Shown: positions 33,901 through 60,900 of the stretch, piece after piece | How the letters are laid out: the number at the start of each line of letters is the position of its first letter | How positions within the stretch are numbered: position 1 is the stretch's first letter | From: Obrimoposthia wandeli | Taxonomy: Eukaryota | Length of the DNA stretch: 64,000 nt | Direction: 5' to 3' | Assembly: GCA_977020255.1 (NCBI GenBank) | Contig: CDROCS010002120.1 | Span: 1-64,000 of the forward strand | Made by a program: the position numbers and the translations under genes | Notes under the pieces: generated by a model | What the model was told of the DNA's origin: nothing | Seen by the model: the letters and a program-made list of their open reading frames with translations, nothing else | The model's database searches: none

Positions 33901-36900
33901 CAGATTTGGTTTTCTAAACAACGATCAAGAATGTTAGACTCAACATTAAACCCTCATTATTATTTTATTATTTGGATAAAAATAACAATTGTGCTTGAAA
34001 ATATCTTTTTATTAATGTTTTTGACTGAATTGTAATTTATATTTATGTTACATAATTATTTTATTTATTTTTCATTAAAAATGTAAATTATAGTGCATTA
34101 TAATTTTATTTTCAAAAATTTTTCTTTTCGATAAATGAGGAACTTTATTAACTTGCATACATTTTTGGGATATTTGGTACTTGCAAAAAACATCAGTTTT
34201 CCCGTGTCTAATTTAAACTGATGTTTTTTATCGATCGTAACTTTTGTACGTTTTTTTATATTTCTTTGTGGGTACACGCCTGGTCAAAATTTTTATTACG
34301 CTTCAATTTAGGTGGCACAAAATATTGCAATTTCAAAATTGTTTACTGCCCCTGACTCAGTAATGACACTAAATAATCTCACAATGAATTGTACTTTAAA
34401 AACGAAACTCAGATTAGAAAAATAAAATATTTATTCATGACGTAAAAAATAAAATTTTAACGCTAAAAACCTCCAATTATTTTTGCTTATAAATTCCAAG
34501 AAGAATATCTTAGAATCATGAAAGTGTTTTTGATTCAGCTGGTCCAAAATCAACTTGTCGGCAGTTATCTTGCATTGTGGTTCATATCTTAGTCCTTTGA
34601 AGATAATATTGGTACATATACCTATATCGGCAAACAATGGTTTTTTATCTGCAGCTATTGAGCAAAATTATACCAGTCTTCGTGTCGTTCTAAAGATCTA
34701 ATTAAGATATTCTAAATGTTTCTTAATTAATATAAAACCTGTAAATGATTTTCTCTAAAATGCAGCGACCAGAATTGCGATAAATCATATAATTGTTTTA
34801 AACTTTGCAAAAGTATTAAAAAGAATATATCTGAATCTTCGGAATCATTCAATAGATCGTAAGTAAACGTAATTTCAGGGTTTGGGAGTCAAATCTCTAT
34901 ATTATCCATGTATTTTGTGTAAATAGTGGCACTAATAAATTTTCAAAAATATTATGAGTAGGTGGATGTGTCCGGTCTAATCCACACCCCCTCTCCCCCC
35001 CTTGTCCTTTAAAACCGTGCATGTGTGTGGAGTGAAATTTCATGTATGTGTGTCTTCATCCCACCCAAAGGGGGAAGGAAGGGGGTACCCCCCCACAACA
35101 TTTTTTTAAAATTTTACCACGAATCTCAAAAGTGGTTAGAGAAGACCACGATAATCCATATTGACCCCGGCGGCTTTTCGCAGACGAGATTTCAAATATT
35201 ACTACTATTTTTAAGAAAGATTTTATATTAATAAATTACTACATGTTAAATATCTATGTCAGTTTTAGAATTTAGAGGAGAAAACTCGGTCAGATCTATA
35301 TAATTTAGAGGAGAAAAAAACAAAATACGAGACAAAATTATTTTTTCAAAATATTTATTAAACATAAAACAACATATTGGCTTCACTCAAAGTCCAGAGA
35401 GGCTGCATTTTCCCGTCATCAGCAAAATATCCATTGAGACGTATTGAGATATTCCATAGTTCTTCATCTAGAATTGGAGCAATCAAATATCCTAGATCAT
35501 CTTTAAAATCCAGGCTGGGATCAGTTTCAAGCTGGAAACAATTTCCTTCATATACATAATCAGGAATGTAAAATCCCAAAATATTTTTCAATTGATCAAT
35601 ATCAGTTGTTGTTTAAATTTCGATGAGATATTTATTCTGCACTTTTGATATTTTCACAGGATTCATAACTCGTATAATTTGATGCCTCTTTAAAATATTA
35701 CATAGTTTTCCTTTTGAAATTCTTTCTGGATAATAAAAATTTGCTACACATCTCTTATCCATTCTAAAATAAGGAAACTGATTAAAAACAATGTTTATAA
35801 ATAAAATACATATAAGATACAAATAAGATACAAATAAAACTGATTATTAAATGAAAGAAACACAGTAAAACCGATTACAATTTATTACACGCAAAAAGTT
35901 AAAACATAGAAATATGAGCACGTTCAATTTTCCACATAGGCAACTTTGTTCCCATTTCATCTTTCTTGTAACCATAAAGTCGAATTGTTACAGTCCATTG
36001 CTTCTTTTTCGGAAACGCATCAATATCAACATATCTTCCATAGTCATCTAGAAATGCTTCATCGGCTCCCCGGATATAAAATTCGTTCTTATTGAAAGTA
36101 AAATTCGGAACTGCCTTTTCAACTTTCTGTTTAAGATATTGAAAATCAGGTTTTTGAATACCTGATAGATAGTAGCTGAACTTTCTTCTTTCAATTGTCA
36201 CAGGATTTACTAAAGCAATCAGTTGAGCCTTCTTCAAGAATCTGACTTTGTATTTGAAATATTGTTTCACTTCTTCATACATATCCTTATCCGATTCTTC
36301 AAACATTCCTATATCTTCGTCATCGCTTAATACCCGTTGGCTATCGTCCATCGTTTATAATTGTCTTTGATATGAATGCATTAACTGTGATTTGTCCTCC
36401 AATGGCGCATTCTTTTATACTAATTTCTAACAAAGACATGAATCTCATTGGTTAATATAACTAAAGCATTGAATTTGATTGGACTAAATCTATATTAAAA
36501 ATCAAAATTGATTGGAAGAAATATATCATCCAATTATAATAGGTTTGCAAGATAATTACAAGAAACGTGCAATAAAAAAGCAGGTTCAGACATATATAAA
36601 GAAGATTTTACAGAATACAATTTCAGTCTAATGAAACTCGTAAATATAAATTATAAAGGTAGAACAGAAGATGATGTTTCATACTTACCATTCAATGAAT
36701 GGAAGCCTAGACAATATGTAGAAAAGTTTGACAATTTCACAGTTGTTATTTTTCCTACAGGTTAGTTTTTTATTTTATTTTCATATTTTATTTTTTAGGA
36801 AATTGTCGTGTTATGGGATGCAAAATATCAATGCTTGGGTTCAATTTACCATTTGGAATTCAAATCACTGCAATACAATCAATCACGATTTCGGCTAATC

Positions 36901-39900
36901 TCGTGAAACAGATAAATCTTTTTAAAACTGCAGAGAAAATGAAAGAAGAATGCATGTTTGAACCAGAAATTTTTCCTGCTCACAGTTATTTGAAGTTTAA
37001 ACCGCTATGTATGAATATATTTTCCAGTGGTAAAGTTATGATATTGGGATTGAAAAATTTTGATTATCCAAACATTGTTGATTTGATTTTAGAAAATATA
37101 TCTTATTACATCTTGTTATCTTTTCTATAAACAAACCCGTTTAAACTTATTGTTTTGAATGAATAATACTATAAATAGAGACAATGAAGTAGATCGGCTT
37201 GCCGACGAAATATTTTCTGGAAAAATAAGGGGTAAAGAAATTTTATCAGAATTAAAAAATAATGATATAACAAGAGATAACATTGAAATATTGGTTAGAT
37301 CACACGTTATTCGAGAATTTAGAAATCGTACACAAATAAATAAAATTATAGCCAAATATTCATTAATTAATTTTTGTATTTCATCTACAATAGCTCTAAC
37401 ATTGTACATTTCAATAAGGAAACTTCTATGATAATATAAACAATATTAAAAATGAAAGAGTATATGCAATGGAGCTAAATAATAATGCTGTATTTCAAAT
37501 AGTTGGCCCAAGTGGAAGTGGAAAGACACATTTCGTCTGTAAATTGTTGCAAAATGAATCTCTTTTCAAATCTAGTTTCAAAAATATTTATTGGCATCAT
37601 GGTGGAGGAGGGGAAAGCGAGTTAACCAAAACAGAAGTTTGCAAGTTGAAGGGTATAAAATTTATTGAAGGATTTGATGCAAATTGGTGTGAAAGATTGC
37701 AAAAAGAAGATGTAATAATAATTGATGATTTGTATCAGGAAGCTACCAAGGAATCGGACTTTAATAACTTATTTACAAAGATTGCAAGTCATCGTGAAGT
37801 GACAGTTATATTTATCACTCAAAATCTTTTTCACCAAGGAGGTCACCGTAGAACAATAAATCTTAATGTACATTACTTAGTTTTATTTAAAAATCCTAGA
37901 GATCAAACAGTTGTTGATTTTGTGGCCAGACAGGCATTTCCTCAAAATAAGAACTTTCTAGTTGATTCATTCCACGATGCTGCTAAACAAGCACATGGGT
38001 ATATATTTATTGACTTTACACAAGCTTGCCCAGATGATTTACGTGTTTTAACAGACATATTTAATTCTAAGGGAGTAACTGTTTATAAACAAATAGAGAA
38101 CAATTATAAAAAATAAATTCGCAATGCCTTTTAAAAAGTTGATAGTAAAACGTAAAGTAAAATCTAAGAAATCAAAAAAAAAGAATCATTAAGAAAAAAG
38201 AATTGAAAAAATTAATCAAATCTGTAGTTAAAAATAAAAAAAAACTTAAATGGCTTCGAATATAAACAATATTTAAATTGAACCTTTTTCATTAAAATGA
38301 AGAAAATACAAAGATGCACACCCTATTTTAAAGGTTTAGTCAAAGCCTCTTCTAATAAGAGAATGATTATTCTTAAAGCATTTCCATCTTTTGTTGTAGA
38401 TGATTTATTGGAAGTTTTGTATAATATAGTTTTGGGTCGAGTAAAAGTTAGAAATCGAAAAAATATATTAAAGAAATATAGAAAAACTCTTCTAGATATT
38501 GCTAATGTAAAAAGTAAAAAAAGGAAACGAAATATTATTCTTAAACAAAATGGTGGTTTCATAGGGGCTGTTATTCCAGTTGTTGCTTCAATTATCAGTA
38601 GTATTATAGCTGCGACACGTTCATAAAAATTATTTCTAAAATCAGCTAAAGATATGGGTGCTAGCCCTTCTTTACCTAAACTTAAAATTTCTTTCTATTC
38701 AAATTGTTGTAATGGAGAAGATATGGTTCAATCCAAAAGATCCAATTGGCTACACAGGAGTTTCAAAATTAGCAAAAAGAACAAAACAAAATTACAAGAA
38801 AACGCAGAAATGGCTGAGCGACCAGTTAGCCTACAGTTTGAACAAGCCGATCAGAAGAAGGTTTCCAACTAGAGCTTACAAAACCAGCGGTCCTAATAAT
38901 TTATGGCAAATGGATTTGATGGAGATGATCCCATATTCTTCCATTAATAAGGGATATCGATATATTTTAATATGTATTGATGTATTTAGCAGGTTTGCTC
39001 GTGCAATTCCAGTTAAAGCAAAGTCTTCAATAGCTATGCTTGAAGCCATTAAAGAAATATTAAAAGAGGATATTCCACAAAATGTGCAAACTGATTTAGG
39101 AAAAGAATTTTATAATAAGCAAGTTCAATCATTATTTAAACAAAATAATATAAATCATTACTCTGTGTTTTCACAATACAAAGCAGCAGTAGTAGAAAGA
39201 TTTAATCGTACTCTACGAGATCGGATAAAAACGTATTTCACAAAAGAAGGAAATAAAAAATGGATCCAAGTTTTACCTAAAATAATACATGCATATAATC
39301 ACTCTGAACATAGAGGTCTCAAGGGAATGAGACCTGTTGATGTTACTAATAAAAACTCTATATACATTTGGATGATCAGGAATAAAAAAGATAAAATTAA
39401 AAAAGCTAAATATAAGAAAAGCGAATATGTTCAAATTTCGAAAATTAGCTCTACTCTATTTATTAAAAACTTTGATCAGAATTGGAGCGATGAAATATTT
39501 TGTATAAGTAAAATTGATCAAAAGAGTAATCCAATAATGTATACTATTAAAGATGCTGACAATAATATCGTTCACGGTAAATTTTACGAGCAAAAACTAC
39601 AAGTAATATCAATAAACCTAGCGTTTTCCGTATTCAAAAAATATTAAAATCTAAGGGTACAGGTAAACATAAACAATACTTTGTTAAATGGCATGGTTAT
39701 TCAGACCCAACTTGGATATCAGCATCTAATATAATATGAATTCTATGTATATGGTTTTACCAAGTAACGGATGTCCGAAGACTCAACCAGATAATTACGC
39801 TATTAGCTTTATTATCGATTGGGAAAATCCTATAAATCTCCAAGGAGAATGGGAAGCGGCTTTAACAGAATTTTCCTTTTATTATTCTCCAATTACTATC

Positions 39901-42900
39901 AGAAAAAACTCACATATTTCGTTTACAAAAGAAGTTGATCATGAAAAATCAATCGAAGTTGTGATTGGGTTTGATAGTAAAGGAAAATTCTATTACAATT
40001 GTATAGATAAAGAAGTGAAAGTAATATATGAAAAAAACAAAGTCAGATTTTAAAATTGATTAAAATTTAAAACATTTAAAACCTATTCAACTTATATTTG
40101 GATCTGATAGAGAAGCTCTTAAATTTGGTTTTGACAGTGGACATGTAGTAGGTATGAAGAGATCTGATATAGCCTCATCTAAATCGTTTAAAAATGTTCT
40201 TGATAAAGTAACAAGAGTGTTTTTAGTTGAAACGAGACCAAAGTATGTAGTGGAACTGAAAACGTTTTCAAAAGATTATAAAATAGATAGTGAAGTGAAT
40301 TTCTGTAAATTAATACAGAAGGAATGTAGTGAATATTTGGATAAATGTGAAACATTAAATGGTAAATTAACGTTTACAGTAAAGAGCAATATAAAACGAG
40401 TTTCATTTGATGATAAACTCGCTAAAAACCTTGGTTTAAACAGAAATACCTTTGAAACCCATACAATAAAAACCATAAAAGCTAAAAAATAAGGCAAAAC
40501 TTTTAAATGCTGTTAATCATTTATATATTTATATTAATTTAATAGAACCAACGCTTGTAGGAGGACAGCGAGTTCCACTTTTGAGAACAATATGGATATC
40601 TAAAAATGAAACTAGAGATGGGGACGCTGTCGGTATGTGTATAGATCAACCAATGTATCTTCCAGTTTCTGTCTTTTCTATAAACAATATTGAAGTAAAT
40701 ATTAGAGATGATTCCAGACAACTAATAGATTTCACGTATGGGGCCAAGACAAGTTTAACAATACATTTAAGAAAACAAAATGGCGAATCCAGCAATAATT
40801 GAAGCTTATAGTCAAAGCCAACAAGGTGGAGAATTACCATATTTTGTTGGCAAACAATATGGATCTGGCTGGCTTAGAACATTAGGTAGATTTGCCTTTC
40901 CTTTTTTAAAGAGACTCGGGCGATTTATATCAAAATTAGGAAAGGATTACCTTTCATCAAAGGACAACAAACTAATACCAACTTTTAAGAAGCATGCGCT
41001 TGATGAACTTGATAATGTTTTACCTGAAGTTGCTAATTTGATTAGAAAACGTAAATCAAATAAAAGCCAAGGAGGTAGTGGATTTAAAAGTAAAAAGAAG
41101 CTAAAAATTAATATAAACAAACGTAAGAAAGTTAAAGGAACAATATTTGCAAAATGAGTTGCGCCAAAACAGAATTGTGTATTTTTGATAAACCACTCCC
41201 ACAAGTAGTTGTAGATAATGCTTCCTTTGAAGAAATATTCCTAGTTAACTCAGTTTCAGGAACCACTTTAACCGATTTAGAATTTAATATTAATGGTTCC
41301 AATAGCGAGTATTTAGATTTGAATGATACTTTGCTTTATGTTCAAATAAAAGTATTAAATCGGGATGGTGCTAATTTAGATGAAAATGCCGATGTAACAC
41401 CTGTAAATTATCTCTTTAATTCTTTATTTAATGATGCCATTGTTACTCTTAATAATGTCAAAATTGAAGGTGGAAATTTTTCCTATGCTCATAAAGCTTT
41501 GATTGAAAGTCTTTTGAATTATAGTACTGATACTCAAAATACTAATTTGGCAACCATTGGTTATGATAAAACTGTTGCAACTCGCAAAGAATGGATTGCA
41601 GGTTCTGAAGCTTACGAAATGTGTGGGTCTTTGAGATTGAATTTCTTTGAACAACTGAAATATTTAATTCCCGGTGTTAATGTACATCTTCGTTTGAAAC
41701 GTAATAAATGTAATTTTTCTTTGATAAGCACGGACATTCTAAAACCTAGACTTGATATTTTGGATGCAAAATTGTATGTTCGAAGAGTTAAAACCGAGCA
41801 ATCAGTTTTAATGGCACATAATATAGGAATGGAAAAAAACAATGCTTGTTATTCTATTAGAGAAACTAAACTTATATCTTATTCTTTAGGTACGGTAACA
41901 CAAGCTTTTAATAAGGATCAAAGTTTTGGTGATGTAAGATTACCGAAATTCATTTTAATTTCTTTTCAAAAAACGGCAAAGTTTCTAGGAAATTATACGA
42001 CAGATACAACTCAATTTGACAATCTTAGTGTAGGTTCAGTGACACTTTCAAGAAATACTGATTATCGTGAAACATATAAAACAGATTTCGAAGGTAACGC
42101 TTATGCTTTGGCTTATACGCAATCTATTATTCGGAATTTGGGCCAACTAGATAAAAATATAAACAATGGTATTTCTTTCATTGAGTTTAAAAGCAGCTGC
42201 CCGTTCTTCACATTCGTTTTGGCACCAGACTTTGATATAAACCAATGCCAACTACCAAAGGATGGAAATTTACGACTAGAAATTAAGTTCAATGCAGCTT
42301 TAACAAATCCTACTACGGTGCTTATTTACGGAGTGTTTGATTCCGAAATACAAATCAATAAAAACAGAACTGTCATATTATAGAATGAAGTAAGACATTT
42401 TTTCAATTTATATTTATAAATTTTTATTTAATTCAAAACAAGTAAAAGAATCAGCAGAGAAGGTCCTGGGTGATAAATTCAATGGAGTTTATCCTATTGA
42501 TATGATTCCATTTTTTCAATCTGGAGGTTACATTATCAATACCCATACTTCGAATTTACCAGGAGAACATTGGATAGCTATTTATGTTAGAGAGTGGACA
42601 ATACATGTATTTGATCTACTTGCAATGTATTATCCACACAAACTTGTTTCGACTATTTAAAAAGGACGAAGAAGAGTATTTTACAACAAGATACAATATC
42701 AAGATCCTGCGACGAGAAACTGTGGACATTTATGTATTTTATGGTTATCGTTGCAAAACGATTAGAATGTTATAAAAATAAATATTTTTAATGTTTTATT
42801 TTGAATTATTTTTTAAATTTCTAAAAATATAAGGGTAAAATAATAAAAGACATAAGACGAAATTTTTTTAATACATTTATTAATCACAACATCACAATGA

Positions 42901-45900
42901 GATATGTCAGCAAAGATAAGGTCCATCCTAAAAATGTATTGAAATAACAAATAAGTTAGAGTCTAGGTGCCATAGGGATCTAAAATTTTAAAAAACTAAA
43001 CTAAAAAAATCAAATAAATGAAAACCGTTTAAATTCTGAAGTGTCCATAAGCCAGGCTAGCGTTCTTTTCTACCCAAAAGCTCTTGTCGTCATTACTACT
43101 CAAAGCGATTTTGATTGATTTATGGGAATACAGTTGATGGGCTCTTGAAATAAATCTAGTTTGCTCAACGCTTTCAATACACCCAGTATCATAAACTTTC
43201 CGGTAGGCCTCATGTGTAAGATTGTTTCTTCCCACACCCTTTGCTCTCATTGAACATGTATTATTAGATGCATGTAAACTGTAGCATTTAGGGCGTAGGA
43301 AAATACAATCATCATACGAAACCTGTCCCTCGCTTTCATCCTTAAATTTCCCGATAATGTCCTTTAAACTCATAGAGTGTAGAGGATAGTTAGTGGGATA
43401 TTTATGGGTATCTAGTAAGTTGTCCCTAAACATTGCTGGTAATAATTGATTATTTAAACAAAAATTCCTACATTCTAAAAAGAAAGAGTCAGTGTCCCAG
43501 GCCGCGATTTTGATCTCACAATTAAATTCTTGTCGGTATTTCTCCAATTCTATGTATAACCTATATAACTCGGTCGATCGAGACAAATACTCTGTTTTCC
43601 TAATAACACTGCTACCAAGTCATCTGCAATTGTAAAACTACGCTTGAAGTTGTACTTGCTAGTATATGTTATTAGTTTACGCTCATCATTGCAAAACCGT
43701 AGACAAATACGTTTCCGCAAGTCCTCTACAGTTTTTCCAAAGAGACTATTACTTTTTAACTTGTAAAAATCTCGATCGAATTTGCTAGTGGCTAAATTAC
43801 ATTTTCTTGAATTCTTCTCAATATAGTCTTTAAACACAAAGTTTTGACTGAAGCTTATAGCACGATGAATTCGAGTAACTTTCGCTCCCAACTTTAAGTA
43901 GAATTGAAGAAGCCGCCAATGCACAACATAATTCAACTTGTCTTCATGGGTTAACAATAATTTCTTAACCTTTGAATTAGGTGGGCATTGATGAACAGGC
44001 GCTACTGGAAGATCATCTAATTTATCATGCACATTGGGAGGGATTTTTATGTCCACCTCAACCAAATAGCCGACGTCGGATGAAACTAAATCAACAGTAG
44101 CCAAATCTGTCATCAACTTATTCAACTGATCCACATCATAAACCCACTTAAAGTTGGCATGAGGTAGAGGTTGAGTAAGCGCCCACCCATACAAATTATT
44201 AATATCGATGTACAGAATCTCCGTGGATTGATTTTTGACAACATGATGTTTGTTGACAAAAGTCATTCCACCGCGTATACCATAATCATACATTTGATAC
44301 ATCGCGGGATCTTGCAGTAACTTGATATTAATTTTAAGAGTTTTTATTGCTGTTGCCCATGAAAGACCAGGTAAACTAAAGAAATGTATGGGATCTAGCC
44401 CATCTTCTGTTAAAGATTTTACACGAAAGGACTCAAAAACATCAGCTATAAGATAAATGTCTAACTTCATATAATAAAGCATATATTCTAAAAGATTTCG
44501 ACAATTATTCACCCAAAATGTACGGGCCTCATTATAGTCTTGAAGACTTACATCCTCAAATTCAGTTATGGGTGGGATTTCAGTTGTATTTTCTAAATCT
44601 GCAAAAGTTTTCGCAAATTTATACGGAAAAATCCCCTTATCGTTAACCGAAGCTGGGAACACTGACTGTGTAATTGGCCATGCATTTAAAGATGCCGTTA
44701 AATTATTTAAAGAACCACTCAAAAACTGCAGAGAATCTATGAATCTTAAACTGCAGAATTCAGTATATGCAGTTAAAGATAAATATTTCTCTGAAGTTTG
44801 AGGTATACATAAAATTTCCCAAGAGCTTAATGTACCCAACGCGTATTTAAGTATATGATGCAAATCATATCCTTTGAGGTTATGAAACACGATGGGAATG
44901 AGTGGTTTTTTAGGGAGACGACGGCCAAGGTTACAAAGGTTGCACGCCGCTTCCAAGTATCGCCCCGTAACATGATCGTGATCTCTGACTAACTTAGACT
45001 GGGTTCCACACAAATAACATAATCTACAAGAATTAAAATTAACCCAGTATATGCCTGTCATGATCATTGCTTGATGAGCATTGAGATCATACCACGGTTT
45101 GACAATTGTTGTTCCTAATTCCTCTAATTTTAACATAAAATCTAAAATACAATTTGGACCGGAAAATTTATGATACTGGGTAATATTGGTATTTCGCGAG
45201 CCTGTATTTATTACACGTTGATCCACTGCGGGTCCGGAGGGCACGCTTTGGCCAATTTTTTGGCCTCTCAGGACCTTAATCAAAATTTTGAGAGCATTTT
45301 GAGATTTTTAAATTTAAAGGGTGTTATATGGAGTTAATTATTTTTTTGAGTGTTTGGGAGGGGAGGGTAGAAAGTTTTTCTACACACCTACACGAAATTT
45401 CACTCCACACACATGCACGGTTTTAAAGGACAGTAGGGGGGAGGGGGTGTGGATTAGACCGGACACATCCACCTACTATTATGGATTTATAATACAAACT
45501 CTGCCCCATGTGTGCGTGTCTGAGTGCCTCCTATTGTAGTCAACTAAACAGTTTTCATGGCATCACTTATTTTTGTAGGATTCTGATTTTATTATAAAGT
45601 ATTTATATTGTGTTAGCATTTTCTTATAGTTCACCCCTTGTTTAACAATTTCAGTATTCATTAACTCGAATAAATATGGTCGAGTTTAGAAAATCGGATC
45701 TACAATAAATGTATACATATATGTGTCTTTTTCAATGTTTTGTATACAATTTTGTATGTTTGTAATCTAAATTATGTCTACTATATCGGGTAATTTCTAC
45801 ATATATTTTCGCGTACAGATTCTACATGCATTCCAAACTGGCAACAGATTGACTACAACATCGACAGAAGTAATTTCCACAACCCGCGGTACAGTTTCCT

Positions 45901-48900
45901 CGTCCAGATTCGTGCGAGCGTGGCATTGTCTCCATATTGGTGTGCTGGAACTATTATTCAAGATAACTGGATCCTGACTTCGGCAAGCTGCTTCTCGTGA
46001 GTTCAATTTGCTCTCTACCCGCTCCCAATAATCGATTCTCGAACTCTGGAATCAACTGATCGCACCCGAGCGCTCTCTACCAAATTATTGTTCAGGCTGT
46101 CACACACAATGTAGACATAAATGACAGGGCCGTAGGGTGTACCAGACAGATTCCCATACATTCGATGATAATGATGCACCGAAGTTCTGTTATCATTATT
46201 GACTCAGCATCTTGTAGTATTTGAAAGATGTTTCAACAGCATTTCCGTAGATTTCGCTGGAATCATCATGGCTTGTGAAACAGCAGTTTTCTGATGAGAT
46301 CACGTAAGGTCACAACAAGATCACACAAGCAGAACTACAACCGACCAATTTTAAAAGTGATTAAATGAATGCGCTTGCTAGTCATTTAGTCACAACTGAA
46401 TAAGAGAGATTGTGGTTGTGATCGCTACTAGTAAAATATGTGTATGTGTCAACTGCTAATTGATAAATTAAGTAAGTTTGTCAATGTATCTGCTTTCAAC
46501 AATTTGTAAACATGTATTTTACATGTATGATTTGTTATATCCATTATTTTACAGGATTATTATATGCTTTTCCAATACTCAACTCTATGTAGCTAATCTA
46601 TCAACAGAAGATACAGTCTTCATTAATTCAAATGAGATATTGTTAATCTCAACAACAAAAAATATTTTATAGATTTTCATCTATTTAAGGTTCCATAGAG
46701 ATTAGAGATGGGTATTCAATGTTTCTTCATTTCATGACAGTGAGTGCATAATTATTATTTTCTTCTGTTTAAAGAATAGTCTATGTATACAGGTGTCTCA
46801 GAAACTCTATCTTTAAATCATCTGAAATAAAAAATAATGGCTGAGTTAAGAAAACGTTGACAGATTAAAATTATCATTAGCTCCTTTGTAATGATATGTT
46901 ATAAGGTTCTTTTTTGTGGAAAAGGTAGATGTGTAATTCTTATAATAAAATACTATAATTTGTTTAAATAATCGTAAAATTACAAAATTTCCTCACAAAA
47001 TTGATTGTGCAAAAACTGTTTCGGAGTTTTATTCATTCAATCGCGACGATAGTAAATAATAAGTAATGTTCAAGTGTAGAAAAACATTCAAGGAATTTCC
47101 AATATTAAGAAAAATATAATGAACAAGTGATATAGCTTAGGTTTCTGGTCGTCTATCAAAACTTTCTCAGAAACAACAAATTGAACTTGTTATTTTGGTT
47201 GACCATCGTACTGGAATTTTTCAGCAGAAACTGGCCAGTATAATTCAAATGTTCTCAGAAAACAATTGGAAACAATCTGAAAATAAATTTTATCACGCCA
47301 AGAAAGTGTACCAAAGCCCCTAAGTCATCTGTAGCTCAACAAAAAAGACAATCCACATATCTCCCCACAAGTACATTATATTAGAAACTATTTTTGAAAT
47401 TCTGAAACGTGTTTATGAAAACAATTGGAGCGCAGAACATAGACAGCAGCTAGATAATTGTATTAAAAGAGTTTCAAAAAAATGCATTTTCTGTATACCA
47501 AAACTTACTAAATAAATATTTGCAAAGCAATTAACGGTGGATTGTAAAATTTGGAATAAATATACGGTTTGAAAGCTATTTCATTATTATAATGAATGAA
47601 ATCGTTTCTGTAGAGCTATAATATATGTTTAACTTTTGACAAGGTTTTTTACTCAAACTTTATTTTCAAAAGCTGTAAAGAAAAGAATACGGATGAAAAA
47701 CAAGCTTACGAAAATATGAAATAAAAATTCAGTCTTATTTGAATATTTCAAATGATCGACTTTTTAATTTACGATATAATTTAAATTAATACAAACAGTT
47801 TATCGTTTATTAAAATTGTTATTCTTAAATTAAAATAGATGTTATTCTTGTATACAAATATATAAAAATATATGATGTAAATGCTGCAAAATTGATAAAT
47901 TAAGATTATTTGAATAATAATGAAATATAACTAAAAAATCAAAATACAAATCGAGTACTTTTATATGTTTATTAAGGTAGCAAGTAGGTTATAAAACCAT
48001 TTTCACGCTTTCTAATATGCAACTACAGTAGGTAGAAGGATGGAGTCTAGATCACTTGACCCCCCCCTAAAGGGTGTCACACCATAAGAATGTCTCGCCA
48101 CACCATAAGGGTATATGTTGCCTCACCTCCGGTGACCCAACATATACCCTTATGGTATGGCAAGACACCCTTATGGTATGACACCCTTTAGGAGGAGGCG
48201 GGAGGCGAGGAGGGGTAGCGGGGAGGGGTCAAGTGATCTAGACTCCATCCTTCTTTGATATACCACTATGATCGTCCATAGTTTAAAGGGTCAAGTGGCT
48301 TAGTCTCCACCCTTCTTTTTGTGATATACCACTATGAAAGGGTCAAGTGGCTTAGTCTCCACCCTTCTTTTTGTGGTCTAGTCTCCACCCTTCTTTTTGG
48401 TTAACCACTAATTCAAAGGGTCAAGTGGCTTAGTCTCCAACCTTCTTTTTGTGGTCTAGTCTCCACCCTTCTTTTTGGCTAACTACTAATTCAAAGGGTC
48501 AAGTGGCTTAGTCTCCACCCTTCTTTTTTGTGATCTAGTCCATAATGAAAATTTATGATAAAGTTCACTCTTATCAATTAAGAAATGTGGTTTTTAACAC
48601 ACACATACACTATTTTATGTGAAATTTAAACTAAAGTTCACTCTTATAAGTTAATGAATGTATTACGTAATCACACACATACTATTTTATGTGAAATTTA
48701 GATCAAAGTTTTTCCTAGGTTTACACATTTATAGAATTATGATAAAATTTCTTTAAATAACTTCAATTATATATTAAAATAAAAAATAAAATAAGAAAGA
48801 AGTCAGAGAATAATACAAAATTAAACACATTTATTATGTAATTTCATAATATCATCTTCAAACTTAAGTGAATAACATTTACAAAGTAAGAAAGTCCATT

Positions 48901-51900
48901 CTTTATACATTCTTTTCGTTTCAACGACTAAGTTACAACGGAATTAATAGAAAATTAGTAAAAATATTAATTTATTTGAATATTTGAATGAGAGTTTGAA
49001 TAAATGAGAGGTAGAATGAATGTAAATGAATAAAATTATGCATGCAAGTATGAATGTCATTTACAAGTAAGAGTCTTAGCAAGTGAATGTAATTTAAAAA
49101 AAAAAAATAAGAGTGTCGAGAGTTTGATTGAATGCAAGTATAATTTAGACTATAAGTAAATTAAAATAGAGTTTTCGTTGAATAAATTATAGTTAGATTG
49201 AATGCAAGTATGAATGCAAGTGATTGATAGTATGAATTTCAATACAAGTAAGTGTCTTAGCAAGTGAATGTAATTTAAAAAATAAGAGTGTCGAGAGTTT
49301 GATTGAATGCAAGTGAAATTTAGACTATAAGTAAATTAAATAGAGTTTTCGTTGAATAAATTATAGTTAGATTGAATGCAAGTATGAATGCAAGTGATTG
49401 ATAGTATGAATTTCAATACAAGTAAGTGTCTTAGCAAGTGAATGTAATTTTAAAAATAAGAGTGTCGATAGTTTGATTGAATGCAAGTGTAATTTAGACT
49501 ATAAGTAAATTAAAATAGAGTTTTTGTTGAATAAATTATAGTTAGATTGAATGCAAGTATGAATGCAAGTGATTGATAGTATGAATTTCAATACAAGTAA
49601 GTGTCTTAGCAAGTGAATGTAATTTTAAAAATAAGAGTGTCGATAGTTTGATTGAATGCAAGTGTAATTTAGACTATAAGTAAATTAAAATAGAGTTTTC
49701 GTTGAATAAATTATAGTTAGATTGAATGTAAATGAATACAAGTATACATTCAAGTGAATGCAAATACGAGTAAGAGTTTCAGCAAGTAAATATAAAACTA
49801 TGAATGAGTGACAGTGAAAATAAGAGTGTCGATAGTTTGATTGAATGAGAGTGTAATTTAGACTAGAAATAAATTAAAATAGAGTTTTAGTATCAATAAA
49901 GTTATGTTAAGTTACAGTTAGATTAATAACAAGTAAGCAACTATAGGAAGCAGTGATATTGAAGTATGTTAAAAATTAGAACGACTAAGTTATGGCAAGA
50001 TTAATAGAAAACAACACCAAATTTGATAGTATGAATGAAAATTAGTAAAATATTAATGTATTTGAATGTATTTGAAAGATAGTTTGAATAAATTACAGTT
50101 AGATTGAATGCAAATGAATGCAAGTATGATTGAATGCAGGGTCAAGTACAAGTAAGAAAGAATACGCAATATGCAAGTACGAATGTCAATTATGAATGAA
50201 AATTAGTAAATATATTAATGAATTTGAATAATTAAAATGTCTTTACAAATTTAGTAAATTAACTCAACAACAATTTTTTTTTTAATTATTTGATATTTTT
50301 GCCATTGTCTTATTAATATAATATGAATATTCAATTTATTTCTTCAAAAATTCATTTTATATGTTAAATAATATTCTTTATCACATTATTGTGGTTTTTA
50401 TCAAGTGATTTTAACCTTAAACTATAAAAATATTTTAATTATAAAGTTAGTTGCTGTACCCCACCCACTGCATATAACATAAATTTCAAATATAAAGTAC
50501 TATTAAGTTTATTATTTCGAATAGTAAATGTTTTTTTTCGAGTTATTTAATTTTGTTTACTAGACATTCGAAAATTTACTTGTAAACTACAATATTTATT
50601 TGTTGTTGTATATATTTAGTTTAAAATGTTGTAAGTTATTACTTTAATATAATTTTCAACAAAAACTTCAAGTAGTTTACTTATTAAACATAAGTTTAAT
50701 GTTTTGTACAATAAATTGACTTGTAAACATAAATTATTTTGATATATTTTCAATTTAATATGTTGTAAGTTATTACTTTAATATAATTTACAACAAAAAC
50801 TTCAAGTAATTTACTTGTAAACTACAATATTTATTTGTTGTTGTATATATTCAGTTTAAAATGTTGTAAGTTATTACTTTAATATAATTTTCAACAAAAA
50901 CTTCAAGTAGTTTACTTATTAATCATAATATTAATGATTTGATCAATAAATTGACTTGTAAACATAATATAATTTGTATATTTTCAATTTAATATATTGT
51001 AAGTTATTACTATAATATTACATTACATAAAAAAAAGTAATTGATAGTTTACTATCGTTTACAATAAATTGACTTGTAAACATAATATATTTATGCATAT
51101 ATTCACTTTAATATGTTGTAAGTTATTACTTTATTATAATTTTCAACAAAAACTTCAAGTAGTTTACTTATTAAACATAAGTTTAATGTTTTGTACAATA
51201 AATTGACTTGTAAACATAATTTATTTTGGTATATTTTCAATTTAATATGTTGTAAGTTATTACTTTAATATAATTTACAACAAAAACTTCAAGTAATTTA
51301 CTTGTAAACTACAATATTTATTTGTTGTTGTATATATTCAGTTTAAAATGTTGTAAGTTATTACTTTAATATAATTTTCAACAAAAACGTCAAGTAGTTT
51401 ACTTATTAATCATAATATTAATGATTTGATCAATAAATTGACTTGTAAACATAATATAATTTGCATATTTTCAATTTAATATATTGTAAGTTATTACTAT
51501 AATATTACATTACATAAAAAGTAATTCATAGTTTACTGTCGTTTACAATAAATTGACTTGTAAACATAATATATTTATGCATATATTCACTTTAAAATGT
51601 TGTAAGTTATTACTTTAATATAATTTACAACAAAAACTTCAAGTAATTTACTTGTAAACTACAATATTTATTTGTTGTTGTATATATTCAGTTTAAAATG
51701 TTGTAAGTTAATACTTTAATATAATTTACAACCAAATCTTCAAGTAATTTACTTATTAATCATAATTTTAATGATTTGATCAATAAATTGACTTGTAAAC
51801 ATAATATAATTTGCATATTTTCAATTTAATATATTGTAAGTTAATACTGTAATATTTCATTACATAAAAAGTAATTCATAGTTTACTGTCGTTTACAATA

Positions 51901-54900
51901 AATTGACTTGTAAACATAATATATTTATGCATATATTCACTTTAAAATGTTGTAAGTTATTACTTTAATATAATTTTTCAACAAAAACTTCAAGTAGTTT
52001 ACTTATTAAACATAAGTTTAATGTTTTGTACAATAAATTGACTTGTAAACATAATTTATTTTGGTATATTTTCAATTTAATATGTTGTAAGTTATTTCTT
52101 TAATATAATTTACAACAAAAACTTCAAGTAATTTACTTGTAAACTACAATATTTATTTTGTTGTTGTATATATTCAGTTTAAAATGTTGTAAGTTATTAC
52201 TTTAATATAATTTTCAACAAAAACTTCAAGTAGTTTACTTATTAATCATAATATTAATGATTTGATCAATAAATTGACTTGTAAACATAATATAATTTGT
52301 ATATTTTCAATTTAATATATTGTAAGTTATTACTATAATATTACATTACATATAAAAAAAGTAATTGATAGTTTACTATCGTTTACAATAAATTGACTTG
52401 TAAACATAATATATTTATGCATATATTCACTTTAATATGTTGTAAGTTATTACTTTATTATAATTTTCAACAAAAACTTCAAGTAGTTTACTTATTAAAC
52501 ATAAGTTTAATGTTTTGTACAATAAATTGACTTGTAAACATAATTTATTTTGGTATATTTTCAATTTAATATGTTGTAAGTTATTACTTTAATATAATTT
52601 ACAACAAAAACTTCAAGTAATTTACTTGTAAACTACAATATTTATTTGTTGTTGTATATATTCAGTTTAAAATGTTGTAAGTTATTACTTTAATATAATT
52701 TTCAACAAAAACGTCAAGTAGTTTACTTATTAATCATAATATTAATGATTTGATCAATAAATTGACTTGTAAACATAATATAATTTGCATATTTTCAATT
52801 TAATATATTGTAAGTTATTACTATAATATTACATTACATAAAAAGTAATTCATAGTTTACTGTCGTTTACAATAAATTGACTTGTAAACATAATATATTT
52901 ATGCATATATTCACTTTAAAATGTTGTAAGTTATTACTTTAATATAATTTACAACAAAAACTTCAAGTAATTTACTTGTAAACTACAATATTTATTTTGT
53001 TGTTGTATATATTCAGTTTAAAATGTTGTAAGTTAATACTTTAATATAATTTACAACCAAATCTTCAAGTAATTTACTTATTAATCATAATTTTAATGAT
53101 TTGATCAATAAATTGACTTGTAAACATAATATAATTTGCATATTTTCAATTTAATATATTGTAAGTTAATACTGTAATATTTCATTACATAAAAAGTAAT
53201 TCATAGTTTACTGTCGTTTACAATAAATTGACTTGTAAACATAATATATTTATGCATATATTCACTTTAAAATGTTGTAAGTTATTACTTTAATATAATT
53301 TTCAACAAAAACTTCAAGTAGTTTACTTATTAAACATAAGTTTAATGTTTTGTACAATAAATTGACTTGTAAACATAATTTATTTTGGTATATTTTCAAT
53401 TTAATATGTTGTAAGTTATTTCTTTAATATAATTTACAACAAAAACTTCAAGTAATTTACTTGTAAACTACAATATTTATTTTGTTGTTGTATATATTCA
53501 GTTTAAAATGTTGTAAGTTATTACTTTAATATAATTTTCAACAAAAACTTCAAGTAATTTACTTATTAATCATAATATTAATGATTTGATCAATAAATTG
53601 ACTTGTAAACATAATATAATTTGCATATTTTCAATTTAATATATTGTAAGTTAATACTATAATATTACATTACATAAAAAGTAATTGATAGTTTACTATC
53701 GTTTACAATAAATTGACTTGTAAACATAATATATTTATGCATATATTCACTTTAAATGTTGTAAGTTATTACTTTAATATAATTTTCAACAAAAACTTCA
53801 AGTAGTTTACTTATTAAACATAAGTTTAATGTTTTGTACAATAAATTGACTTGTAAACATAATTTATTTTGGTATATTTTCAATTTAATATGTTGTAAGT
53901 TATTACTTTAATATAATTTACAACAAAAACTTCAAGTAATTTACTTGTAAACTACAATATTTATTTGTTGTTGTATATATTCAGTTTAAAATGTTGTAAG
54001 TTATTACTTTAATATAATTTCAACAAAAACTTCAAGTAGTTTACTTATTAATCATAATATTAATGATTTGATCAATAAATTGACTTGTAAACATAATATA
54101 ATTTGCATATTTTCAATTTAATATATTGTAAGTTATTACTATAATATTACATTACATAAAAAAAAAGTAATTGATAGTTTACTATCGTTTACAATAAATT
54201 GACTTGTAAACATAATATATTTATGCATATATTCACTTTAATATGTTGTAAGTTATTACTTTATTATAATTTTCAACAAAAACTTCAAGTAGTTTACTTA
54301 TTAAACATAAGTTTAATGTTTTGTACAATAAATTGACTTGTAAACATAATTTATTTTGGTATATTTTCAATTTAATATGTTGTAAGTTATTACTTTAATA
54401 TAATTTACAACAAAAACTTCAAGTAATTTACTTGTAAACTACAATATTTATTTGTTGTTGTATATATTCAGTTTAAAATGTTGTAAGTTATTACTTTAAT
54501 ATAATTTTCAACAAAAACTTCAAGTAGTTTACTTATTAATCATAATATTAATGATTTGATCAATAAATTGACTTGTAAACATAATATAATTTGCATATTT
54601 TCAATTTAATATATTGTAAGTTAATACTATAATATTACATTACATAAAAAGTAATTCATAGTTTACTGTCGTTTACAATAAATTGACTTGTAAACATAAT
54701 ATATTTATGCATATATTCACTTTAAAATGTTGTAAGTTATTACTTTAATATAATTTTCAACAAAAACTTCAAGTAGTTTACTTATTAAACATAAGTTTAA
54801 TTTACAACTTGTAAACATAATTTATTTTTATATTTTCAATTTATATGTTGTATATTTACTGTTGTTGTATATATTCAGTTTAAAATGTTGTAAGTTAATA

Positions 54901-57900
54901 CTTTAATATAATTTACAACCAAATCTTCAAGTAATTTACTTATTAATCATAATTTTAATGATTTGATCAATAAATTGACTTGTAAACATAATATAATTTG
55001 CATATTTTCAATTTAATATATTGTAAGTTATTACTATAATATTACATTATATAAAAAGTAATTGATAGTTTACTATCGTTTACAATAAATTTATTTATAT
55101 ATTCACTTTAATATGTTGTAAGTTATTACTTTATTATAATTTTCAACAAAAAACTTCAAGTAGTTTACTTATTAAACATAAGTTTAATGTTTTGTACAAT
55201 AAATTAACTTGTAAACATAATTTATTTTGGTATATTTTCAATTTAATATGTTGTAAGTTATTACTTTAATATAATTTACAACAAAAACTTCAAGTAATTT
55301 ACTTGTAAACTACAATATTTATTTTTTGTTGTATATATTCAGTTTAAAATGTTGTAAGTTAATACTTTAATATAATTTACAACTAAATCTTCAAGTAATT
55401 TACTTATTAATCATAATTTTAATGATTTGATCAATAAATTGACTTGTAAACATAATATAATTTGCATATTTTCAATTTAATATATTGTAAGTTAATACTA
55501 TAATATTACATTATATAAAAAGTAATTGATAGTTTACTATCGTTTACAAATGTCATAAAATTTAAAATGTTGTAAGTTATTTTACTTTAATATAATTTTA
55601 CAACAAAAATTTCAAGTAATTTACTTGTAAACTACAATATTTATTTTTTGTTGTATATATATATTCAGTTTAAAATGTTGTAAGTTAATACTTTAATATA
55701 ATTTACAATCAAATCTTCAAGTAATTTACTTATTAATCATAATTTTAATGATTTGATCAATAAATTGACTTGTAAACATAATATAATTTGCATATTTTCA
55801 ATTTAATATATTGTAAGTTAATACTGTAATATTTCATTACATAAAAAGTAATTCATAGTTTACTGTCGTTTACTATAAATTTACTTGTAAACATATTATA
55901 TTTATGCATTTATTCACTTTAATACGTTTTAAGTTATTAGAATTTGTGTTCTTGTATTCAATGATTAACTTTTATTAAACTATTATATAACATTGACACT
56001 CTTATTTTTAAAATTACATTCACTTGCTAAGACACTTACTTGTATTGAAATTCATACTATCAATCACTTGCATTCATACTTGCATTCAATCTAACTATAA
56101 TTTATTCAACGAAAACTCTATTTAATTTACTTATAGTCTAAATTTCACTTGCATTCAATCAAACTCTCGACACTCTTATTTTTTAAATTACATTCACTTG
56201 CTAAGACACTTACTTGTATTGAAATTCATACTATCAATCACTTGCATTCATACTTGCATTCAATCTAACTATAATTTATTCAACGAAAACTCTATTTTAA
56301 TTTACTTATAGTCTAAATTGCACTTGCATTCAATCAAACTCTCGACACTCTTATTTTTTTTTTTAAATTACATTCACTTGCTAAGACTCTTACTTGTAAA
56401 TGACATTCATACTTGCATGCATAATTTTATTCATTTACATTCATTCTACCTCTCATTTATTCAAACTCTCATTCAAATATTCAAATAAATTAATATTTTT
56501 ACTAATTTTCTATTAATTCCGTTGTAACTTAGTCGTTGAAACGAAAAGAATGTATAAAGAATGGACTTTCTTACTTTGTAAATGTTATTCACTTAAGTTT
56601 GAAGATGATATTATGAAATTACATAATAAATGTGTTTAATTTTGTATTATTCTCTGACTTCTTTCTTATTTTATTTTTTATTTTAATATATAATTGAAGT
56701 TATTTAAAGAAATTTTATCATAATTCTATAAATGTGTAAACCTAGGAAAAACTTTGATCTAAATTTCACATAAAATAGTATGTGTGTGATTACGTAATAC
56801 ATTCATTAACTTATAAGAGTGAACTTTAGTTTAAATTTCACATAAAATAGTGTATGTGTGTGTTAAAAACCACATTTCTTAATTGATAAGAGTGAACTTT
56901 ATCATAAATTTTCATTATGGACTAGATCACAAAAAGAAGGGTGGAGACTAAGCCACTTGACCCTTTGAATTAGTAGTTAGCCAAAAAGAAGGGTGGAGAC
57001 TAGACCACAAAAAGAAGGTTGGAGACTAAGCCACTTGACCCTTTGAATTAGTGGTTAACCAAAAAGAAGGGTGGAGACTAGACCACAAAAAGAAGGGTGG
57101 AGACTAAGCCACTTGACCCTTTCATAGTGGTATATCACAAAAAGAAGGGTGGAGACTAAGCCACTTGACCCTTTAAACTATGGACGATCATAGTGGTATA
57201 TCAAAGAAGGATGGAGTCTAGATCACTTGACCCCTCCCCGCTACCCCTCCCCCTCCCCGCCTCCCGCCTCCCGCCTCCTCCTAAAGGGTGTCATACCATA
57301 AGGGTGTCTTGCCATACCATAAGGGTATATGTTGTTGATCATGAAATAGAAGTTCATTTAAAACTTATATGATTGCCATTTTGTAAAAAAATACGTAAAA
57401 TTTTGGTACAATCATGTGGTAAAACCTACTAACCATTTTTTTGTCGTTTTTCAGAGAAAATTATAGGAAAATGTAGTTTTCTTCATAAGTTAGAATATTC
57501 TCTGAGCTCAAAGAGGCCCTGATTGAAGCATGAGACTGGCATCTTCTTTTTCAAACTATATAAGCAAACTAATAATATCAGCAGGGGCTTCACAGGAGTA
57601 TCAAAATAAAAAATCCAAAAACGGCGGTGAATTTGTTATTGGAGAGGCAGGATCAAAAAATTTTAACGACACTGATAGATATGGTTCAATTTCTCGGATC
57701 TCACAATACAATTCAATGTTCGGACAAAGATGACATTTTTGGTACCTGAGTTCATTTTAATATAATTTTAATAAAATAATCACCTTTTATTGTCTTATTC
57801 ATGTATAATAATCCAATTTAGTTCTAAAATTTTTAAAATCACATAAAAAGTACAAACTTACGTGTCAGCGGCTCTAAACATATTGCTTTCGGCAATATCG

Positions 57901-60900
57901 ACTTTGATTAAGTGTATTCAATCAGTAATAAATTTGGCAAAGTGGTACTTATCATGAAAAACGTTTCATGGATTTCTACGGTGACCTCTTGTGCACAAGT
58001 AAACCAAATTTCATATCAATTGGTTCATTACTTACAGATATCTCCTGTACCAAAGATCATAGATATGCTGAAAACAAGAAATTGATAAAATCAGCAAACA
58101 AATGAGAAAACCCATTCAATGTCCGCACTCTCACATAACTTTTGACAAGGTTTTATACTCAAACTTTGTGATCAGGGTCAAAGTGGTCTGATGTATTACT
58201 CCAATACCTTCCATTTGGGCTTGGATTTTACAACTCGAAGCCGATGTATGGATCATTTCTTGAGCATCTTCACGATTCTGGAATTTTTGTTCAGCATTCT
58301 AATGGGAGGTCCGTGAAAATATGTACTTTTCTGACAAATTGCTTGCCCTTTGCGAGGCATTTTGCACTGATATTGTAACTAGAATATATTTTCCACAATG
58401 CGAAATAACAATGAGGATGAAAAACTGCTAGAAATTCGAGATATCAAGAATTGAAAAAGAGCAAACTGTCATTGGATACCACAATCGACCAAATAATTCT
58501 GGAACAGGCCCACTCGAAGCTTGTCGTTGATTGGCTACATAAGTTTGGTCTCAAAATAGAATATAGTCATCGACAAAATTAATTGCATTGTTGGAATTGA
58601 AATTAAATAAGCATGAATAGGCGTTTCTAAGGCCCAAAGGGGTTGCTATAGAGCCATGCACACCTAACAGGTGTGACACTCTGCACCATATCACAACAGG
58701 AGAGAGGTTTTTCGTTGTTTTCTCATCGGAATTAGATTCTACGGTAATTTTTACATCACGGAACACTCAAATCTCAAAACCATGAAAGTACCAAAAAAAT
58801 CGGAATTTAAAACCTTACTACTACTTTAAATTAAATTCAAAAATTCCTTGTCTCTTAAACGTTTCCCTAATTTTTATGAATATGTATGTAGGTTGTTTGT
58901 AGGTCTTGATAGCCTTCTTCCTTCAGCTCATCTTCCACAATACGTGTTTTGTTCTCGATTTTGCATAGTTTACTTCGTACTGTTCGGTCCATCTCATTTT
59001 CTTACTCATATATCAGTTTGGCCTCTAGAGAAACATTAATTTGTCAAATAATGCTCTAAAATTTACACTTTCCAATTTATTCCTCGAAGTGAAATAATGT
59101 TCATTGTAGTTTGAGACTAATTTTTCTCTATTCCACTATATAAAAATTAATATGTTTTACTTCATGTATCGTGTCAAATCCATTTGAAACTTTGGATAGA
59201 ACGTAAATAATTGCGTTTTCACCATTTTTCATGTTGATGTTCAGTTTACTTTACGGTATTCATTTTAGTTCTCGGCCATATATATTAAAACTACACAAAG
59301 AAAAAGTTTTACCCATGTATGTTAGTGTGTTTATGTGTCCAAATATTTATGAAATTGAATTTTAATTATCGTAATCATTTATGTTGAATATTTAGAAATT
59401 TTAAGAACTTTTCTTGTTTATTACATCTTATTATAGATGATGAAATTTAACTTTTTACCCATGAAATTCAGTTTTGTCGAGTGCAGTACTTTAGCAAATC
59501 AATATTCTTACCATTGATGTGTGTCGTCAAACTGACTTAATTTATTAATTAAGCCAGCTACAGAAATACATGTAAATCGGTAATAACACAATGTCCATTT
59601 CAAATAGCTAGTCCATCAATTTAATCGCTTTTTGAAATTGGTTAAAAATTTCCCTGCAATCAAACACATTAAATTTGCAGAAATGACATTTCTTAACTTC
59701 TTGGCGACATTGAGGGTTGGCTACGTCAATTTACATGTAATACTTTTTCGCCTTCTGTTGTCATTTACCTTAACTTACCACTGCGAATCTCACTTAAAGT
59801 CATAACAACGATGTCTCCTAATACGACATGTTTTGCGCCTTTTCAACAATTCCTCTGCGCATCTCCAATCTAGAAATCAAAATACAATGTCATCCTTTGC
59901 ACCAATAAACATCAATAACTGTGCATATTTTAAATAATTCAAACTCAATATTCTTACAGATATTCTGTTGGTAAAAAAGAGCCGTGACCAAATAAAGTTT
60001 GGGGAGCCTGTGATTTAATAACTTCGTATTTCCTTAACATAATTTTTCTTGAAATTGAGTTTACATTGGTTATATGTATAGTTTATATTAATACCTACTT
60101 TATTTGCTACATGTTTCTTTAAAGTTGTACTCTTTCTTTTCTGACTATTTTTTTAAAAGTTATTAATAAAAAACAATAACTTATAATAAATCTAAAATTT
60201 ATTTAATAATATTTTATCAAGAAAATACTTTTGTTGTATAATTGCTAAATAAATGTTTAAACGTTGTTTTATAACTTACTTTGTAGTTGGACACTTACTT
60301 TTGATCGTAGTGCATTACTTATTATATTCTAAATATTATTTTTCTCCTGATTACGAAAAAATATATTTATATTATTGTTTTATTTTATATATTTTATAAT
60401 TAGTTTCTAAATTTACTTATATTTATTACATATATGATATTTTAGAAAAATTAAGAATTCCAATAAAAATTCTAAGTGTCCACTAACTTTTGATCACAAC
60501 TCTATGTTAATAAGTTAATTTACCATTTTAAAATAATTCCTTTTCCCAGTCTGCAAAAGCACTACTACTACGTCACGTATGCCAATAACCCATGGAGCAG
60601 ATACGGCATCTCACAATGGTTCATTCATCCGCAGTACTCAAGTAAAAATTTAATAGTTAAAACAACTCATTATACTCATAAATTAAAGTGGAATTCGTCT
60701 AATCATATAAATTGAATTGGTTTCAATAAGCCATTTTAAAGTCATGTGGTCACAGTTGAAAAATATACATTTTTATGTATTTTAAAATCTCAAATTTTGA
60801 TGCTATTTTAAGAATTTCAAAAATTGAGTATGGTTCAGGCTCTTAATAATATATATATATATATATATGCATTTTTAGTAAAGAATTGCACGGTGAAATC

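Follow-up and report, generated by a model that had tools for sequence, protein, structure and literature searches.

A gene-free element with near-identical inverted arms

The 64,000-nt stretch of Obrimoposthia wandeli DNA analysed here (contig CDROCS010002120.1, positions 1 to 64,000; hereafter the window) contains at 48027–57334 an element in which two long inverted arms enclose an AT-rich spacer and a satellite array, and in which the left end resembles the ends of Maverick/Polinton elements. A first-pass annotation, made from the letters of the sequence, had described a non-coding foldback element with near-identical inverted arms. That structure is real and the arms are borne out by two alignments: self-BLAST (below) and a global alignment of 48138–49466 with 55995–57334, in which 1,325 of 1,327 paired bases are identical, the two mismatches are adjacent, and the 15 gap columns amount to one 13-bp difference in a G-rich tract and two homopolymer slips. 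The parts of the element are as follows.

48021–48026, plus strand: six host bases, the expected place of the left half of a 6-bp duplication, judging from the 6-bp duplication of a neighbouring Maverick
48027–48055, plus strand: left terminus of Maverick/Polinton type, starting AGTAGGT
48034–48254: subterminal palindrome of 221 nt, from folding and alignment of its halves
48138–49469 against 57334–55992: left-arm inverted repeat and its right counterpart, 98.6% identical over 1,345 columns (self-BLAST)
48279–48540, plus strand: 78-bp repeat, 3.1 copies, within which the terminal 30-nt motif recurs four times, inverted and slightly diverged, and twice as a half copy
48546–48995, plus strand: 73-bp repeat, 2.2 copies, followed by unique AT-rich arm sequence
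48996–50157, plus strand: left-arm array of 174–175-bp repeats, decaying inward; the inverted repeat stops within this array at about 49469
50158–50571: unique AT-rich spacer, 414 bp, 19.6% GC
50572–55939, plus strand: AT-rich satellite, 5,368 bp, 16.9% GC
55995–57334, minus strand: right arm, with 2.4 copies of the 175-bp repeat, the unique part, the 73-bp and 78-bp repeats, and the inner half of the hairpin at 57205–57334

Both arms are modular, as the annotation had proposed: a GC-rich 33-nt motif occurs five times per arm, the repeats put at about 70 bp measure 78 bp (3.1 copies) and 73 bp (2.2 copies), and the supposed 180-bp repeat is 174–175 bp long, with 4.8 copies on the left and 2.4 on the right. 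As in a Maverick, the arms form terminal inverted repeats (TIRs), here of 1.33 kb, or 1.44 kb on the left when the terminus is included. The claim that the element lacks open reading frames also stands, as no stop-to-stop frame of 100 amino acids is present anywhere in it and the longest has 66; Rfam gave no matches to the element. None of the genes of a Maverick (rve integrase, protein-primed PolB, ATPase, capsid) is found between its ends. With a longest frame of 66 amino acids the element is not an autonomous member of that group, and can only be a dependent derivative.

A Maverick-type left terminus

Five public sequencing runs were listed, four of them from one sample and holding 86–88% of the sampled words, and contigs from three of that sample's four runs and from the fifth run (X5, a marine metagenome) were placed on 46800–48990. 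Contigs part from the sequence precisely at 48027 and continue into flanks unlike one another; they number 32, 120 and 194 in three runs (agreement 0.40–0.43), and this exact exit in three runs means that the end is fixed independently of any motif. The left end given earlier, 48034, has to be abandoned, since the contigs leave at 48027. Comparison of this end with the window drew on two further features.

34957–45477: gene-bearing Maverick/Polinton of 10,521 bp, with 97-bp TIRs and a perfect 6-bp duplication (ATTATG), 2.5 kb upstream of the element
30301–30379, minus strand: a third Maverick end, 25/29 identical to that of the neighbour, with no partner end found in the window

All three Maverick ends in the window begin with the same 7 nt as the sequence at 48027, and AGTAGGT provides five of the six bases of (AGT)2; an end of this AG/AGT-repeat kind is present on the left side only. 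In an ungapped comparison with the Maverick terminus at 34957 there are 19 identities in 29 positions. Past the heptamer, 12 of 22 bases agree at 48027, against 3–7 of 22 at eight other AGTAGGT sites, and when both strands of the window were scanned with the neighbouring Maverick's end, 48027 was the top site after the three Maverick ends. Only 1 of 2,000 full shuffles scored as well against the neighbour's left end, and 13 of 2,000 did so when the heptamer was kept; with the heptamer fixed, 21 of 2,000 matched the score against the neighbour's other end. Mavericks are the sole end match found in the window, where no end in common with a transposase-driven family was detected. The neighbour at 34957–45477 defines the end motif, and a role for it as helper is not established.

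Exact-pattern scans with the arm motifs returned no matches in viral contigs and none in metagenome contigs. The shared end pattern had two matches in viral contigs, both lying within long open reading frames without likeness to the element or to a Maverick, and we took these to be chance; its four matches in the window are circular, as the pattern was built from those sites.

A dispersed and diverse family

In run X3, summed contig depth is about 120–340 over most of the flank and 0.85–4.4 million in the arm, values that do not give a copy number; even allowing for up to 31-fold over-counting by overlapping short contigs, hundreds of arm copies would remain. Taken together, the exact exits at 48027 and the depth of the arm indicate that the element belongs to an abundant family whose dispersed copies have a single exact end in common, as a non-autonomous derivative should; the contigs that show this come from one sample. 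The proposal of a mobile unit in the first-pass annotation is supported: the element is one such unit, with modular inverted arms and a defined end that recurs at many insertion sites.

The family is diverse. Among the X3 contigs placed, 7,591 of 29,569 are at least 99% alike, and both arms carry a letter at 48271 that 59–69% of the depth is without. Variants leave or enter the arm at 48546, 48850, 48852 and 48914 with high agreement (0.85–0.95), and the 48914 variant is also present in run X5, which yields only 16 short contigs on 46800–48990. A further 57 contigs in X3 share the first 39 nt and then pass into a mixed consensus (agreement 0.45) that starts TCTGTCC; in the Maverick end at 30379 the same letters come after the C-run. 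These diverging contigs hint at a relative with conventional TIRs and the same terminus.

The hairpin and the broken right end

The 221-nt palindrome begins 7 bp inward from the conserved end and consists of a 30-bp perfect outer stem, six transition mismatches, a 29-nt one-sided purine-rich bulge and a tip stem-loop at 48121–48137. The hairpin folds at −87.5 and −93.8 kcal/mol, and none of 200 shuffles was as stable (z of −16.6 and −18.1). Within the 78-bp repeats, the 33-nt motif corresponds to the outer stem in inverted orientation, with slight divergence; the terminal motif is thus found at the end itself, a second time in the hairpin and in four additional copies farther in. All six mismatches are G–T on the minus strand, but the letters at 48089 and 48096 are in the minority in the family, and we do not claim a strand-specific hairpin structure.

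The right arm has no equivalent of the outer 111 bp; it stops at the hairpin tip and the terminus is absent. Among the 15 joints listed, eight begin at 48127–48135, which is the hairpin tip, with repeats making the far side uncertain, and breakage there, as seen in the right arm, is probably a recurrent lesion. The annotation had seen no target-site duplication, and there is still none: searches with 4–12-mers around both candidate ends picked up nothing beyond short AT words and the palindrome of the element itself. We attribute the missing duplication to the break at the hairpin tip. The hexamer at 48021–48026 recurs downstream only at 59289 and 61379 and has no partner at the broken right end. 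An ACCTACT at 57424–57430, 96 bp past the break, was considered as a remnant of the right end; it shows 5/22 further identities and no matching duplication, and was taken as chance.

A young higher-order satellite

The 5.4-kb one-direction AT-rich satellite reported between the arms was confirmed: cutting at one anchor gave 44 sites, all on one strand. Its monomers fall into four types of 134, 101, 133 and 115–120 bp that are 68–91% alike, and together they form a four-monomer unit of 484–490 bp, of which seven copies compared are 97.4–100% alike. Above this level is a 1,324-bp super-unit in two copies that are identical in 1,322 of 1,325 columns, with zero substitutions. The satellite is therefore a higher-order repeat, and the nested unit identities indicate that the array grew stepwise, with a very recent latest step. 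Its units differ by diagnostic variants that follow an order, and are not a set of collapsed, identical copies. We rejected a descent of the satellite from the 175-bp arm repeat, as 191 of 500 shuffles score as well.

Interpretation and alternatives

The explanation that we consider probable is that the element is a recently inserted copy of a high-copy, gene-free, non-autonomous family that depends on Mavericks/Polintons and is mobilised in trans, and not a foldback of FB or Tetris type. The part of Maverick enzymes in this mobilisation we infer from the shared end alone. An earlier suggestion of a defective linear replicon, with genes replaced by repeats, comes close to this reading. Under it, the ends would be the only cis signals; the integrase of a helper Maverick would insert the element, and the helper's protein-primed polymerase would copy it in linear form, starting at the AGT-type ends, with arm pairing during copying keeping the arms identical. 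A fold-back of the polymerase on the terminal 87 nt is the probable origin of the hairpin. The inverted terminal motif may then have been tandemly repeated to give extra candidate binding sites for helper proteins, a role that reiterated origins play in defective viral genomes. The interior would be free of coding constraint, and has here been filled by a satellite in which the latest 1.3-kb duplication is very young. During or after insertion the right end would have broken at the hairpin tip, removing the terminus and the target-site duplication, and with its right end lost this copy is probably dead.

Several observations weigh against this interpretation. The evidence from reads is confined to a single sample, which may be the source of the window, and consists of short assembled contigs; beyond the 15 joints listed there are 74 more joints and 947 rows of loose ends. 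No empty site was seen in the contigs, and flank contigs stop at 47998–47999. With the right end missing, no 6-bp duplication is demonstrable. At the left end, 10 of 29 bases separate the terminus at 48027 from the neighbour's, and past the heptamer its likeness to the third Maverick end is not significant (175 of 2,000 shuffles). The Maverick ends in the window are without a long hairpin, the first 251 nt of the three ends folding to −20 to −29, and outside its terminus the element shares nothing with the Mavericks of the 64-kb window. No helper Maverick with the 48027 terminus was recovered. Loci related to the Maverick capsid gene were absent from viral contigs and numbered 49 in metagenomes; none of these 49 metagenome loci has a 48027-type end or likeness to the arms, and most are without termini of their own.

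One may instead postulate a classical foldback DNA transposon of FB, Tetris, Galileo or Phantom type, moved by a cut-and-paste transposase, in which the arm motifs are transposase sites and the Maverick-like end is coincidental or captured. The long, modular TIRs, their internal tandem repeats and the lack of an open reading frame do fit the description of Tetris in the available text of PMC4079207, and mobility with a sharp end fits any TIR element. This scenario has to set aside the 19/29 in-register match to a Maverick end, and it gains nothing from the satellite, which is unrelated to the arm repeats. The sequence of the window by itself would have allowed a Tc1-type parse of the end, TA followed by CAGT; we rejected it, as the copies diverge at 48027 and not at 48024, and the pooled flank ends in ATA. 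For the same two reasons, the Maverick-type end and a satellite not detectably derived from the arm repeats, we did not retain FB or Tetris as the family, as first proposed, and we regard a foldback transposon as quite unlikely. We rate somewhat lower still a scenario in which the arms are Maverick-ended and the 9.3-kb unit does not move as a whole, the satellite being an independent or private array, or the structure a local inverted duplication or a mis-assembly. The contig evidence covers the left arm and its flank and not the interior, the inverted repeat stops partway through a tandem array, and the element has one broken end, all of which suit such a history; yet no inner terminus is present in either arm, the arms are almost identical within a diverse family, and the satellite carries ordered diagnostic variants. 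An expansion private to this copy would in any case still be compatible with our preferred explanation of the arms.

An integrated defective rolling-hairpin replicon, parvovirus- or densovirus-like, with one hairpin telomere extended and the other opened at its tip, would account for an imperfect, bulged 221-nt palindrome at one end that is cut exactly at the tip at the other, and for a tip-loop base (48129) that is polymorphic in 37–63% of the depth. Among the 15 joints listed, one changes strand (depth 330); contigs built from 31-mers would be expected to lose phase across a 30-bp stem. The hairpin is not the end of the element, however: the conserved end joins many flanks at one exact base 7 bp outside it and carries a Maverick motif, and no Rep or NS1 frame is present. 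We consider this origin highly improbable.

A bolder extension of the Maverick-dependent reading is that the element is a gene-free satellite 'virus' of a Maverick, which would outcompete its helper through the hairpin and the tandem terminal motifs and use the satellite as filler to reach a length that the capsid can package. We think this unlikely. The lengths in question are 9.4 kb for the element and 10.5 kb for its Maverick neighbour. The filler hypothesis is motivated by the length constancy of vertebrate Mavericks, which according to the available text of PMC8097293 vary by only about 10% in length, read there as a capsid constraint. If it were true, a viral size constraint would maintain satellite DNA and disperse it, possibly from host to host.

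An abundant gene-free family with Maverick ends would show which cis signals suffice for this mode of movement. Mavericks are usually described as low-copy and gene-rich, and there is little direct evidence for the model of their replication. Identical arms, a reiterated end motif and a fragile hairpin would be readable traces of the copying mode. The element would also provide a route for the birth and dispersal of satellites via a virus-like element, other than transposase-driven foldbacks or Helitrons.

Comparison with known elements

In the available text of PMC8097293, (AGT)2 is given as the commonest end of vertebrate Mavericks, which have TIRs of 46–1,447 bp and 6-bp duplications and are expected to use their terminal repeats for protein-primed initiation. 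Against that portion of the record the element is Maverick-like in its AGT-type end, in a TIR length that falls within 46–1,447 bp, and in sharing its end signature with a gene-bearing neighbour. It is unlike a Maverick in having no integrase, PolB, ATPase or capsid genes, in its 221-nt hairpin, reiterated motif and satellite interior, and in an apparent abundance far above the low copy numbers typical of vertebrate Mavericks.

Non-autonomous Polintons are already catalogued. The 'N' in the name Polinton-1N1_DR presumably marks a non-autonomous family, as in Repbase usage. That zebrafish family is named in the part of PMC9341505 available to us. Such families resemble the element in having Maverick ends without a full gene set and in presumably moving in trans; compared by name only, they differ in that we found no account of a hairpin, origin reiteration or higher-order satellite in them. 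An anole survey (PMC3014272) notes, in its accessible text, an apparent absence of non-autonomous Polinton copies. A search of the full-text literature, with most subscription papers, Repbase Reports and supplements outside its scope, found no report of a Maverick that lacks genes and has a subterminal hairpin, a reiterated end motif or a higher-order satellite, and the available portions of PMC12166591, PMC12910113, PMC8504770, PMC6431247 and PMC11296320 added nothing on gene-free Mavericks.

With Tetris and other foldbacks the element has in common, going by the sections of PMC4079207 at hand, that it is non-autonomous, has modular TIRs with internal tandem repeats and is linked to a satellite. 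It differs in its end type and presumed enzyme, and whereas the Tetris satellite is stated in the same sections to derive from the TIR repeats (TIR-220), the satellite here shows no likeness to the arm repeats. The Helitron/Helentron satellites of the Pacific oyster, as far as the available text of PMC8268682 describes them, are likewise non-autonomous mobile elements with a central tandem array, but they have short boxes in place of 1.3-kb mirror arms. One oyster satellite, CgiSat52, is listed in that text as similar to Polinton, with fragmentary similarity.

The neighbouring Maverick and other features of the window

The Maverick at 34957–45477 encodes an rve integrase (E 1.3e-12), a DNA_pol_B_2 polymerase (E 5.6e-28) split over two frames (43029–43619 and 43550–45307), a Pox_A32-like ATPase and a TBP-like protein. 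A 415-amino-acid protein, which from its place in the gene order we take to be the probable major capsid protein, has 140 homologues, the best of them 57–61% identical, and has no Pfam match and, by its profile, no PDB sequence match. A nearly complete 14.2-kb relative of this Maverick (L015) contains two adjacent intergenic AT-rich palindromes of 90 and 74 bp at 794–957.

An older, inverted Maverick remnant, 63–74% identical to the neighbour, lies at 11844–15855 within 10853–17730. The 447-bp inverted repeats that enclose it (88%) contain 210-bp tandem repeats and end in TGT...ACA, not AGTAG, with no duplication seen, and 10853–17730 is possibly another TIR element that captured Maverick genes.

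Flanking the element, 47120–47660 and 57335–58167 resemble by eye the decayed ends of a Tc1-type transposase, without Pfam support; both flanks share a 32-bp motif (47630–47661 and 58136–58167), and the right flank seems to start mid-gene at the break. Elsewhere, the minus strand carries at 18897–20601 the fragments of a hAT-like transposase that has a BED zinc finger (E 4.8e-07), a perfect 38-bp AT-rich palindrome lies at 18645–18682, and 23865–25323 is a 1.46-kb non-coding element resembling a foldback or miniature inverted-repeat transposable element, with 254-bp arms 92% alike and inner inverted blocks. The DNA of the window is AT-rich and animal-type, and it includes host exons for an SRCR domain at 30554–30862 (E 1.1e-07) and a trypsin-like domain at 61145–61594 (E 6e-04), which suggests a mosaic serine protease gene with these elements in its introns.

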